A DNA stretch of 60,410 nt, from contig JBOHPP010000072.1 of assembly GCA_050731755.1 (NCBI GenBank), positions 1-60,410 on the forward strand, in the 5' to 3' direction. Under the pieces are notes generated by a model. That model made no database searches. It was not told the origin of the DNA and saw only the letters and a program-made list of their open reading frames with translations. The stretch is from Candidatus Rokuibacteriota bacterium (GTDB taxonomy: Bacteria; Methylomirabilota; Methylomirabilia; Rokubacteriales; CSP1-6). The translations under genes and the position numbers were made by a program. This document shows positions 15,095-19,622 of this stretch, piece by piece (the stretch's first letter is position 1; each line of letters opens with the position of its first letter).

Positions 15095-15195
15095 TGGAGC
15101 GGGGGCCGCGAGGCCGGCTTGGGCCGTGGGTGGCCTGTTCTAGGCGCGTATGGCTTCGTGGCTCTAGACCGATTGATCATCTTGATCATCTCGAG
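15095..15195 (-). repeat. copy A of a ~95-nt conserved 5' leader element (abuts the kinase ATG)
   Basis: The reverse complement aligns with 19529-19622. By hand alignment there are about nine mismatches, a 9-nt internal duplication and a 2-nt indel. Confidence 0.8.
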
Positions 15196-15239
15196 TCGTG
15201 CAGGTTCGCCCGCCGTAGCCTTTTCGAGGCACGCTCGGT

Positions 15240-15602
15240 TCATCTGCGGCGCTCGCGGAGGTCTATTTTCTTCATGTTTTCAAGATCTTCTCGCAGCCTT
15301 TCGAGATCTTGCTTGAGGCGGCTCAGCTCGGCGTCCCGGGCCGTCAGCTCGTGGCGCAGGCGGGCGACGTCGGCGCGGGCAGCGAGCAGGTTGGTTACCG
15401 TCTGGCGACTGGTCTGAGCCCGCGTCGCCAGCCGGTCGCTGGGGTACCTGGCCAGCAGCTCGTCGTAGGTCTGCAGCGCGCCGGCGTAGTCGCCGCGCTC
15501 GACCATTCGATCGGCCCGGTCGAGCAGCGTCGCCGAGGGCTGCAGCACCGCGCAGCCGGCCGGTCCAAGCAGCGACAGCGCAAGCACCAGCCGGACGCTC
15601 AT
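15240..15602 (-). CDS. lipoprotein with TPR-like and coiled-coil regions
   Basis: Start ATG 15602 forms an ATGA overlap with the upstream kinase stop. MSVRLVLALSLLGPAGC lipobox. C-terminal heptad-like LTARDAELSRLKQDLERLREDLENMKK. Confidence 0.6.
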   Translation of the reverse strand: MSVRLVLALSLLGPAGCAVLQPSATLLDRADRMVERGDYAGALQTYDELLARYPSDRLATRAQTSRQTVTNLLAARADVARLRHELTARDAELSRLKQDLERLREDLENMKKIDLRERRR

Positions 15603-17044
15603 GGGTGCGCGCTCCCGCGGGGCAGCAGCACGGTGAACCGACTCCCCTTGCCTTCCTGGGACTCGACCGTCACCCGTCCGCCGTGCGCTTCCACCAGGCC
15701 TTTGACGATGGGCAGCCCCAGGCCGGTGCCGCCGCGTTCGCGGTGGGCCTGCTCGTACCACCCGAAGATTCGCGGCAACGCGAGCGCGGGGATGCCCACG
15801 CCGGTGTCTTCAACCTGGATCTCAACCTCGGCTCCGGCGTCGATCAACCGCACCATCACGCGGCCGCCTCGCGGCGTGAAGCGGATCGCGTTGGTTACCA
15901 GGTTGACGATGACCTGGATGAGCCGGTCCTCGTCGCCAAGGTAGTCGAAGCGGGCGCCCACGCGCTCCATCTCCAGGGCCAGCCCCGCCTCCTGGGCCTG
16001 CGGCCGCAGCTCGTCCACGCCCTGCCGTACGGTCTCGTCCAGGAACACCGGCAGCCGCTGGATCGCCAGCATGCCGGCCCGCAGGCGCGAGAAGTCCAGG
16101 ATCTGGTTGACGAGCCGGAGCAAGCGATCGGCTCCCTGCTCGACGATCTCCACCAGGCGGGCCTGCTTGGGGTTGAGACCGCCGGGAACCTCGTCGCGCA
16201 GCAGGTGCCCCGCTTCACGCATGGACGTGAGCGGCGAGCGCAGCTCGTGAGAGACGCTGGCGATGAACGTCTCCTTGAGCTTGTTCATCTCGCGCAGCCG
16301 CTCGGCCATCGTGTTGAACGACCGCGCCAGCTCGGCCATCTCGTCCCCACCCTGCACGCGGACCGGGTCTCGGAACGAGCCGGCCGCGACCTCCGCGGTG
16401 GCCGCCGAGAGCGCTCCCAGCGAGCGGGTGAGCCGCAGCACGATCAGGGCCGTGGCCAGCAAGGCCAGGCCCACGGCGCCTCCCAGGGCCATGAACACGC
16501 CCGTCCAGGTGCGGCCCTCCAGCCGCGAGGCCTCGGCCTGAGCGGTCAGGGCCGCGCTGTGGATGTCGTCCATGAGCCGCCCCAGCGAGCTCTCCACGCG
16601 CTCGATCAGGGGGCTCGACTCCGTCTCGGCCAGGACGAGCGCGCGTTCACGCTGGCCCTGGCGCACCAGGGCCTGCTCCTCGGCCACCACCCGCTCATAG
16701 GCCGTAAACGTCTCGCGCACCCGGTGCAGCCGCGCCTCCTGCTCCGCCGTCGTGAGGAACGAGCCGAGGCCGATGATCTCTTCTCGGACCTGCGCCGCCC
16801 GCTCCTGCCATCGGGTCATGTAGCGGGGATCGCCCAGGACCAGCATTCCCGCCTCCAGCCGCGCCAGCGCCGGCATGGCGTCGTTGATGGCGGCGGCGCG
16901 GCGCACTGCGGGCACGGTGCGGGTGGAAATGTCGCGGTTGACGGCGACCAGCCGGTTCAGGGCCCGCAGGCTCAGCCCGCTCACGATGAAGAGCGCGGCG
17001 ATGACCAGTGAGAACGCCAGGAAGAGCTTGACGCCGAGCTTCAT
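15599..17044 (-). CDS. sensor histidine kinase (TM, four-helix-bundle sensor, HAMP, HisKA, HATPase)
   Basis: Start trimmed to ATG 17044 (MKLGVKLFLAFSLVIAALFIV). SHELRSPLTSM H-box and DTGVGIP / GGTGLGLPIVK. No adjacent response regulator. Confidence 0.85.
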   Translation of the reverse strand: MKLGVKLFLAFSLVIAALFIVSGLSLRALNRLVAVNRDISTRTVPAVRRAAAINDAMPALARLEAGMLVLGDPRYMTRWQERAAQVREEIIGLGSFLTTAEQEARLHRVRETFTAYERVVAEEQALVRQGQRERALVLAETESSPLIERVESSLGRLMDDIHSAALTAQAEASRLEGRTWTGVFMALGGAVGLALLATALIVLRLTRSLGALSAATAEVAAGSFRDPVRVQGGDEMAELARSFNTMAERLREMNKLKETFIASVSHELRSPLTSMREAGHLLRDEVPGGLNPKQARLVEIVEQGADRLLRLVNQILDFSRLRAGMLAIQRLPVFLDETVRQGVDELRPQAQEAGLALEMERVGARFDYLGDEDRLIQVIVNLVTNAIRFTPRGGRVMVRLIDAGAEVEIQVEDTGVGIPALALPRIFGWYEQAHRERGGTGLGLPIVKGLVEAHGGRVTVESQEGKGSRFTVLLPRGSAHP

Positions 17045-18512: not shown

Positions 18513-18571
18513 TCATATCAGCGGCCCCGCGCGATTGCAAAGCCTCCGGTCGTGGCCTACCATTACGCGCC

Positions 18572-19537
18572 ATGGAGTTCGGCCTGTCGCTGCCCGGCCG
18601 CGGCCCGCTCGCGGGCCCCGACGTCGTGCTCAAGATCGCCGCGCGCGCCGAAGCCCTGCGTTACTCGTCGCTGTTCGTCACCGACCACATCGTGCTGCCC
18701 GCCTCCACGGCCCGTTCGATCTACCCGTACTCGCCCTCCGGGCAGTTTCCCGGCGGCTCGCAACAAGACTACCTGGAGCCGCTGGCGATGCTGAGCCATC
18801 TGGCCCACGCCACGACGCGGGTGCGGCTGGGCACCAGCGTGCTGGTGATTCCGTACCGGAACCCGCTGACCACCGCCAAGATGCTGGCCACCATCGACGT
18901 CCTGTCGAAGGGCCGGGTGATCCTGGGTGCGGGCGTGGGCTGGCTCCGGGAAGAGTTCGAGGCGGTGGCGGCGCCGCCATTCGCGGAGCGCGGGCGCGTG
19001 ACCGACGAGTATCTCCGGCTCATGCGCGCGGCCTGGACGACCGATCCCGTGACGTTCGAGGGGCGGTACTACAAAGTCCGCGACGTCCACGCGCTCCCCA
19101 AGCCCCGGCAGCGCGGCGGGATCCCGATCTGGATCGGCGGCCACACCGACGCGGCGCTCCACCGGGCGGCGTCGGTGGGCGACGGGTGGCATCCCATCGG
19201 CTTGCGTCCCCCCGCCGGCCTCATGCCCGACGAGTACGCGGCCAAAGTCAAGCAGCTTCATACCTACGCGCAGCAGGCCGGCCGTGATCCGCGGACCCTC
19301 ACGCTCAGCTTCCGAGCCCCCATGGAGGTGCGCTCGCGACGCGAGAAGACGCCCGGCGGCGACCGCCCTCTGTTCCAGGGCTCGCCGGCGGAGATCGTCG
19401 GCGACATCGACCGCTACCGGGCGCTCGGGGTGCGCCACTTCGTGTTCGATCCCGTCCGCCCGGATGTCAAGGCCATGCTGGCCAACATGGAGCGCTTCGC
19501 CCACGACGTCCGCCCCAAGTTGCGGGGTTCGAGATGA
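18572..19537 (+). CDS. LLM-class (luciferase-like) F420-dependent oxidoreductase
   Basis: Start trimmed to MEFGLSLPGRGPLAG. DHIVLP...PLAMLSHLAHATTRVRLGTSVLVIPYRNPLTTAKMLATIDVLSKGRVILGAGVGW is typical of the LLM family. Confidence 0.8.
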   Translation: MEFGLSLPGRGPLAGPDVVLKIAARAEALRYSSLFVTDHIVLPASTARSIYPYSPSGQFPGGSQQDYLEPLAMLSHLAHATTRVRLGTSVLVIPYRNPLTTAKMLATIDVLSKGRVILGAGVGWLREEFEAVAAPPFAERGRVTDEYLRLMRAAWTTDPVTFEGRYYKVRDVHALPKPRQRGGIPIWIGGHTDAALHRAASVGDGWHPIGLRPPAGLMPDEYAAKVKQLHTYAQQAGRDPRTLTLSFRAPMEVRSRREKTPGGDRPLFQGSPAEIVGDIDRYRALGVRHFVFDPVRPDVKAMLANMERFAHDVRPKLRGSR

Positions 19538-19622
19538 TGAATCGGTCTAGAACAACGAAGCCATGCGCGCCTCGAGCAGGCCACCCACGGCGCAAGCCGG
19601 CCACGCGGCGCCCGCTCCAACA
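19529..19622 (+). repeat. copy B of the ~95-nt conserved 5' leader element (abuts the cofG ATG)
   Basis: See copy A. It begins inside the last codons of the LLM gene and ends ...CCGCTCCAACA directly before ATG 19623. Confidence 0.8.

Follow-up and report, generated by a model that had tools for sequence, protein, structure and literature searches.

A MIRU-like intercistronic repeat family of Rokubacteria at two operon junctions of one contig

Introduction

A 60,410-nucleotide contig of a Candidatus Rokuibacteriota bacterium (JBOHPP010000072.1, the whole of which is referred to as the window) carries two copies of an element of about 90 nucleotides, one of which (copy A) lies directly before the gene of a REC-GAF kinase and the other (copy B) directly before cofG, a gene of F420 biosynthesis. 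The question raised by this arrangement is what kind of element ends at the start codons of both genes. A sequence-only reading had proposed a shared regulatory leader or RNA coupling F420 synthesis to nitrogen signalling, with a dispersed repeat or a recombination substrate as its fallbacks. The explanation preferred here, with a probability of about 0.7, is that both copies belong to a dispersed intercistronic repeat family of Rokubacteria which is reminiscent of MIRUs, the interspersed repetitive units of mycobacteria, and would be tolerated at operon junctions since translational coupling across it is preserved.

Two copies of one repeat unit

A repeat search of the window identifies inverted arms at 15094-15185 and 19529-19620 which are 92 nt long, 89% complementary and separated by 4343 nt. 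The duplication that had been read from the sequence is thus real, and its copies do bracket a 4.3-kb block. When aligned, copies A and B are 87.8% identical with about 11 mismatches in 90 columns (about nine over some 85 nt had been counted by hand), and the longest perfect match between the two arms is 15 nt. Two long sub-blocks of the element each occur exactly twice in the 60-kb window where shuffled sequences lead one to expect 0, and a search with the family's hidden Markov model, which takes in diverged copies, finds no third copy in the window. The copies are further distinguished by two indels, each a multiple of three: a 9-nt in-frame duplication in copy A (ATGATCAAG) and a 3-nt indel on the 3' side (CAA), previously reported as 2 nt. 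As had been noted, both abut an ATG (15094 on the minus strand for the kinase and 19623 for cofG) in the orientation of the downstream gene, and both contain a TCTAGA site and a CGGC-NCAA-GCCG mini-hairpin, the loop of which is the most variable spot of the entire family. The position of the element had been described as that of a promoter or 5' leader, but both copies are intercistronic, copy A between a small TPR-like gene and the REC-GAF kinase gene and copy B between a luciferase-like (LLM) oxidoreductase gene and cofG.

A dispersed family in Methylomirabilota

Beyond the window the element was followed by its 22-nt core (GGCCACCCACGGCNCAAGCCGG) in a scan of one genome per species. This core scan yields 30 loci, 27 of which lie in 16 metagenome-assembled genomes (MAGs) of Rokubacteria or Methylomirabilota with at most four loci per MAG, and all true core matches fall within the Methylomirabilota. 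The remaining three, two in Streptomyces and one in a Pseudomonadota MAG, match over 22-28 nt only, and for this reason the Streptomyces loci are treated as matches that have probably arisen by chance in GC-rich DNA; they lie in a coding region translated as GHPRRKP... (L011:7521-7548, L032:859-885), which by eye is presumably of the IS5-family transposase type. Outside the searched core the members share the blocks CGSAGCC, N8-9 and TCTAGAACA before the core and CCTCGCGGCCCCCGCTACAA after it, with a start codon 0-25 nt further on. This family core measures about 66 nt, and the unit of the subfamily found in this genome about 90-95 nt, the window copies sharing some 25 more bases on the 5' side, TYCGAG-ATGATNAATCGGTCTAGA. 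A scan of metagenomes with this 5' module gives 10 exact matches on six long contigs, all of metagenome Ga0187892 and including the two sites of a sister strain, and nhmmer recovers about 20 units from the Ga0187892 loci, some of them in tandem. The dispersed repeat that the sequence-only reading had offered as its fallback is therefore the correct description, and the many additional copies which it had named as the mark of such a repeat were found by the core scan at 27 loci and by the 5'-module scan at 10 sites.

Copy A is more closely related to a unit upstream of a selB-type gene in locus L041 (93.3% identity) than to copy B (87.8%). A direct duplication from A to B is therefore rejected, and the two copies are regarded as two members of a lineage-specific subfamily that did not give rise to one another.

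The downstream gene is co-oriented with the repeat at about 24 of the 27 core-scan loci, and the downstream proteins start right at the end of the repeat, with N-termini that agree with the starts of their Pfam models. These genes include selB, rplN (ribosomal protein L14), the polA 5'-3' exonuclease, purS, nuoH and nuoM, and further a serA-type dehydrogenase, a histone-deacetylase-family gene, an enoyl-CoA hydratase and a biotin carrier gene. Operon junctions that hold the repeat include those of nuoH, nuoM, rpsQ-rplN, LLM-cofG and TPR-REC-GAF. Units also occur in tandem, with an 86-nt period and a shared ATGA in L040 and with a 66-nt period repeated about four times in L037; L024 and L028 are likewise tandem. 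Among copies sampled by means of the 5' module, CAGGCCACCCACGG and a following AGCCGG hardly vary and form the DNA core. The four bases between them are hypervariable, as is expected for the loop of a hairpin of 4-5 bp. It is possible that CAGGCCACCCACGG...AGCCGG serves the repeat as a recognition site.

Reading frames that bridge the junction

The claim that the element is non-coding holds for the cofG frame only, as the frame one base downstream is open from ATGA to ATGA in both copies. In copy A the bridging open reading frame (ORF) begins at an ATG (15243-15241) that overlaps the TGA of the TPR-like gene (15242-15240) and ends at a TGA (15093-15091) that overlaps the ATG of the kinase gene (15094-15092). 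The copy has ATG codons of its own in this frame (15189 or 15180), of which that at 15189 starts a frame of 32 codons. Mini-ORF B begins at an ATG (19534-19536) that overlaps the TGA of the LLM gene (19535-19537) and ends at a TGA (19624-19626) that overlaps the ATG of cofG (19623-19625). An ORF on the antisense strand is also open across both copies; it was dropped because the sense-frame architecture accounts for the in-frame indels, and antisense frames are often open in high-GC DNA.

At no fewer than 21 of the 27 core-scan loci the upstream gene is joined to the downstream one by an unbroken path, which takes one of four forms, and the units from the 5'-module scan follow the same bridging pattern. 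The repeat can constitute a separate mini-ORF which runs from ATGA or TGATG to ATGA, GTGA or TAA (L006, L008, L009, L012, L017, L019, L021, L031, L033, L039, L041); the mini-ORF of L010 has its own Shine-Dalgarno sequence. Elsewhere the upstream gene reads through to the stop codon of the repeat (L018, L022, L027, L028, L029, L034/35, L047), or the downstream gene gains an N-terminal extension, its frame being opened by a GTGA at the upstream stop (L013, L025). The fourth form is an insertion in frame within a GNAT gene of the phosphinothricin-acetyltransferase type (L015, 3074-3667), where about 18 extra residues (TTQPDPISNRPPTAQAGLAAPV) form a loop between the conserved VAE and VGW segments in comparison with PDB entries 4j3g and 1vhs. 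Three loci (L019, L033, L008) use another frame of the repeat, and here small changes in the length of the ends restore the link to the downstream ATGA or GTGA, the upstream link being an ATGA overlap or, in L008, a TTG 8 nt past the stop. In L040 the chain extends from the upstream gene through ATGA, unit, ATGA, unit and GTGA to the biotin carrier gene. An automatic control over all fetched loci found bridged spacers in 9 of 11 cases with a co-oriented element versus 8 of 55 without (Fisher p = 2.8e-5).

The architecture suggests how a junction could accommodate the repeat. Each unit would act as a mini-cistron whose ATG overlaps or follows the upstream stop, which has 16-50 open codons and whose own stop overlaps the downstream start (ATGA or GTGA) or falls a few bases before it. 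After finishing the upstream gene, ribosomes would start anew on the mini-ORF, stop at the start codon of the gene that follows and begin translation once more from it. By virtue of this re-initiation through the mini-ORF, the repeat could fill a tightly coupled junction without uncoupling the genes.

Filled and empty junctions in related lineages

The sister strain, represented by a 173-kb contig (L001) of MAG GCA_973789865.1, encodes an identical REC-GAF kinase protein, is 98.6% identical to the window in DNA and colinear with it over more than 16 kb, and contains both copies. The CofG homologues carry the names Rokubacteria or Methylomirabilota, the nearest outside this population being 86% identical. 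Four lineages (L002, L003-5, L044-46 and the P0011 contig) have a bare 4-nt ATGA overlap between LLM and cofG, and it is this junction that copy B splits in the window and the sister strain. In L047-50, a fifth lineage, the junction holds a copy that has diverged (nhmmer E = 9e-9; L047:3936-4004, L049, L050; L048:3929-4001). The LLM protein of L047 reads through this repeat and becomes about 35 residues longer, ending in ...SKPASRLPLQ and a stop at the cofG ATGA; in L048 a TAA breaks the extension. In one lineage the gene call for LLM gives 358 aa, as opposed to 321-325 aa elsewhere. The matrix of CofG identities does not place L047-50 next to the lineage of the window, and the presence of the repeat at the cofG junction of two non-adjacent lineages thus implies either two insertions or a single old one that was later lost, precisely, several times. 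Sites of this kind would point to mobility of the repeat in the past or at present.

Upstream of the REC-GAF kinase gene a copy is also present in L006, and none is recognisable in L003-5, L044 or L047. Continuity across the TPR/REC-GAF junction is nevertheless kept, by a GTGA overlap in L044, by repeat-containing ORFs in L006 and the window, and by spacer ORFs that run from ATGA to ATGA over 36 codons in L047 (770-880, minus strand) and 94 codons in L003 (5135-5419, minus strand). The latter two, in which no repeat is recognisable, may be decayed repeats.

An ATGA at both ends of copy B was considered as a target-site duplication. The 5' ATGA and the TYCGAG preceding it recur in other copies, and the idea is weakened because TYCGAG-ATGA belongs to the repeat itself.

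A peptide free of selection

The product of the mini-ORF does not behave as a functional micro-protein. When scored by codon position in the mini-ORF frame, variation comes to 0.51/0.35/0.31, and the third position shows no excess. Between the window and the sister strain 6 of 86 nt differ in copy B and 9 of 146 nt in the spacer of copy A, which amounts to a divergence four to five times the genome average (98.6% identity). All four frames stay open, yet the changes alter residues (K to E, R to S, A to V, P to L, Q to E), and in copy B every difference changes the amino acid. Among 1.84 billion representative proteins the 50-aa product has only two true relatives, both of them repeat-derived. 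P0121 (120 aa) consists of three tandem 22-aa repeats (RSR.APGAGHPRS.PASRPPLQ) and is a translated array with the 66-nt period, and the second is a C-terminal fusion. Given the lack of a third-position excess, the residue-changing differences and the repeat-derived nature of the only relatives, a functional micro-protein was rejected, and the peptide is not under selection.

Competing explanations

A shared cis-regulatory leader or RNA that co-regulates F420 synthesis through cofG and nitrogen signalling through the REC-GAF kinase would fit the adjacency of both copies to start codons in the same orientation, the second lineage with a copy at its LLM-cofG junction, and the strongly conserved core with its small hairpin and variable loop. 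However, the element precedes unrelated genes (selB, rplN, polA, purS, nuoH, nuoM, serA, the histone-deacetylase-family gene and others), its copies are intercistronic, and four of the five related lineages lack it at the cofG junction, which argues against a regulatory role at that gene. Nor is there a stable or conserved fold. Rfam returns nothing relevant for the whole window at gathering thresholds or for the two copies at E values up to 10, RNAalifold on 28 copies and both strands gives a 4-bp hairpin only, and single copies fold with z-scores of -0.9 to +1.15, no better than shuffles, into structures that differ by copy. No tRNA or tmRNA was found in the window. Such a leader is therefore very improbable, and a regulatory link between F420 biosynthesis and nitrogen signalling at this locus is not supported. 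The repeat could instead carry a promoter, its 3' end (CGCTACAAT) providing a -10 box for downstream transcripts with a short leader or none, and this would explain both the orientation bias and the proximity to start codons. Many copies end in TACAAT, TACAAC or TACAGT, in L017, L027 and L034 the start codon follows after 5-7 nt, and the lineage has many genes that lack a Shine-Dalgarno sequence as well as a conserved TACCAT-like box 8 nt before the LLM ATG. Set against this, a sigma-70 scan of 14900-19800 for -35/-10 hexamers 16-18 nt apart gives 0 sites and is thus empty for both window copies, no -35-like block stands at the right spacing, and only part of the family ends in the -10-like TACAAT; in many copies, those of the window among them, the hexamer is a TCCAAT that overlaps the ATG and is incompatible with a -10 box for that start. 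The in-frame indels, the switching of frames and the ATGA chaining would also be left unexplained, which makes a promoter improbable. By eye the core was also compared with a sigma-54 site, dropped as its GG...GC spacing is N9 or N11 and not N10, and with a sigma-28 site, dropped as the likeness to GCCGATAA holds in few copies only.

It is unlikely, if still worth weighing, that the repeat is neutral dispersed junk which owes its distribution to spread or recombination and its open frames to high GC content and the loss of gene-breaking insertions, with no role in translation. The bridging of 15% of element-free spacers, the unconstrained peptide, the broken units and the many starts without a Shine-Dalgarno sequence would all be accounted for, but not that spacers with the element are bridged about five times as often, that the unit keeps a conserved ATG and stop of its own, that the indels between A and B are 9 and 3 nt, or that frame-compensating changes occur at the independent loci L008, L019 and L033. 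Next to no credence can be given to the further suggestion that the two inverted copies form a switch by which the 4.3-kb block (TPR gene, kinase, MFS and LLM) is turned round. The copies are indeed inverted and bracket the block; their identity is 88-89% with a perfect match of at most 15 nt, a flip would part both downstream genes from their operons, the sister strain (colinear over 16 kb) and relatives with one copy or none agree with the window in how the block is oriented, and no assembly with the opposite orientation was seen. A possible but tentative extension of the preferred explanation is that the repeat is an active mobile mini-cistron which targets start codons or ATGA overlaps, its core and hairpin being recognised by a recombinase or used in template switching, and which seeds new protein termini and loops. 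Being readable in all three frames, it would give rise to C-terminal tails (as in LLM and others), N-terminal extensions and the internal loop of the GNAT protein. If this is true, filled and empty sites in hundreds of Rokubacteria MAGs could show how MIRU-type repeats move, a mechanism which to our knowledge has never been established.

Several observations weigh against a MIRU-like repeat tolerated through coupling. Both the translation of the mini-ORF and the coupling of the genes are inferred, some units are broken or frameshifted (L026, L036, L043), and 15% of the spacers without the element are bridged too in this GC-rich genome. About half of the genes in these loci have no recognisable Shine-Dalgarno sequence, and it may be doubted that the downstream genes need coupling at all; given that such starts are common, a missing Shine-Dalgarno sequence at the 3' end of the repeat is by itself no evidence that coupling is required. 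Coupling leaves the near-invariance of the 14-nt core unexplained; its cause may lie in the way the repeat is copied, or the copies may simply be young. As far as mobility is concerned, neither window copy has terminal inverted repeats of 8 nt or more, no clear target duplication was found (the upstream TYCGAG being repeat sequence), no enzyme is associated with the repeat, and the case for movement is drawn from the polymorphism only.

Relation to known repeats

As characterised in one report, MIRUs are 40-100 bp long, number 40-50 copies, lie between cistrons of polycistronic mRNAs and contain ORFs whose ends overlap the adjacent genes, and filled and empty sites have been compared (PMC3184786). 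A 2025 review states that they insert at start codons and that their internal ORF is coupled to the downstream gene at a spacing of -4 (PMC12548453, citing Supply et al. 1997). On these accounts the Rokubacteria repeat and MIRUs have in common a length of 40-100 nt, tens of copies, an intercistronic position within operons, co-orientation with the genes, head-to-tail tandem arrays, filled versus empty orthologous sites, and a small ORF overlapping at either end with the stop or start codon of the adjacent gene, at the -4 spacing of ATGA. The host phylum is Methylomirabilota here as opposed to Actinomycetota, and unlike MIRUs the Rokubacteria family is also fused in frame to upstream C-termini, to downstream N-termini and once inside a gene; no clean tetranucleotide target duplication is seen, the 5' ATGA and the preceding TYCGAG being part of the repeat. 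The repeat may be called MIRU-like in how it appears to work, by a likeness of architecture, and as all its true matches fall within Methylomirabilota it is not filed here as a MIRU.

Rickettsia palindromic elements are selfish repeats inserted in frame in protein genes. The copy within the GNAT gene of L015 resembles them, but the Rokubacteria repeat is not palindromic, has no stable fold and is mostly intercistronic. With miniature inverted-repeat transposable elements (MITEs), repetitive extragenic palindromes (REPs) and bacterial interspersed mosaic elements (BIMEs) it shares a short, non-autonomous and dispersed intergenic nature and a lineage-specific amplification; it differs from them in that it lacks both a REP-like palindrome and terminal inverted repeats of 8 nt or more, is strongly biased in orientation and is organised around a reading frame. 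The literature searched yielded no description of repeats from Rokubacteria or Methylomirabilota. The Rokubacteria repeat forms a new family within a class of repeats that is known, if rare.

This suggests that a second, apparently independent repeat has colonised operon junctions by means of its own coupled mini-cistron and that the strategy is not just a mycobacterial oddity. For annotation it means that such spacers resemble promoters or leaders yet are probably translated linkers, and that gene callers either skip the mini-ORFs or extend neighbouring proteins through the repeat. Target choice and the mechanism of spread could be worked out from the many filled and empty sites and from the lineage-specific subfamilies that abundant soil MAGs offer, and the tandem arrays could act as strain markers as do MIRU variable-number tandem repeats.

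Host genes and neighbouring sequences

The features of the two junctions are collected in Table 1. In the sister strain the minus-strand chain consists of a 4HB-HAMP kinase gene, a 4-nt overlap, the TPR gene, a 145-nt spacer with copy A, the REC-GAF kinase gene, a 4-nt overlap and an NtrC gene; in the window too the 4HB-HAMP kinase gene precedes the TPR gene, and an NtrC-type activator gene follows the REC-GAF kinase gene, each with a 4-nt overlap. On the plus strand CofG is followed by CofH and then CofD. The 5' module of copy B covers the LLM stop and the last three codons of that gene, GGT TCG AGA, minus the first two bases.

Table 1. Coordinates of the repeat copies, their reading frames and the flanking genes in the window
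Feature	Position	Strand	Description
Copy A repeat unit	15091..15194	-	TCGAG + ATGATCAAG + ATGATCAATCGGTCTAGAGCC + 66-nt family core + CTCCA-ATGA
Conserved core, copy A	15112..15137	-	CAGGCCACCCACGGC-C-CAAGCCGGCC; mini-hairpin CGGC/CCAA/GCCG at 15126-15115 (4 bp)
Bridging ORF A	15091..15243	-	50 codons + stop; translation MNRACLEKATAGEPARLEMIKMINRSRATKPYAPRTGHPRPKPASRPPLQ, then stop
Copy B repeat unit	19528..19626	+	TTCGAG + ATGATGAATCGGTCTAGAACA + 66-nt family core + CTCCAACA-ATGA
Conserved core, copy B	19577..19602	+	CAGGCCACCCACGGC-G-CAAGCCGGCC; mini-hairpin CGGC/GCAA/GCCG at 19588-19599
Mini-ORF B	19534..19626	+	30 codons + stop; translation MMNRSRTTKPCAPRAGHPRRKPATRRPLQQ, then stop
REC-GAF-HisKA-HATPase kinase	13592..15094	-	Pfam; downstream of copy A
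Small TPR-like gene	15240..15623	-	upstream of copy A; start from sister-strain gene call (ORF 15240-15761)
LLM oxidoreductase	18572..19537	+	Pfam; upstream of copy B (ORF 18491-19537)
cofG	19623..20768	+	381 aa; downstream of copy B; start 19623 fits 380-381-aa homologues

Between the 4HB-HAMP kinase and LLM genes the window has an MFS transporter gene (17124-18512, minus strand), confirmed by Pfam. This slot is variable: L002 and the P0011 contig have the MFS gene as well, L003-5 and L047-50 lack it, and a 4HBT thioesterase gene takes its place in L044-46. A conserved box (TGGCCTACCATTA) is located 6-7 nt before the LLM ATG, with no Shine-Dalgarno sequence (L001:6490-6512; L003:7590-7611; window ~18550-18571), and may be the -10 box of a leaderless LLM-cofGH mRNA.

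Further along, the cofC-cofE spacer (window 24511-24730), in which the window and the sister strain diverge most, contains an unrelated 42-nt tandem repeat of 3.4 copies (24518-24659) with two GC-rich hairpins (GGAGGGGGCGGCCGCTGCCCCCTCC). A GTG that overlaps the cofC stop (TGA 24540-42) opens a frame of 62 codons through these repeats to a TAG abutting the cofE ATG (24727), and a second, different intercistronic repeat of the same operon is thus bridged as well.

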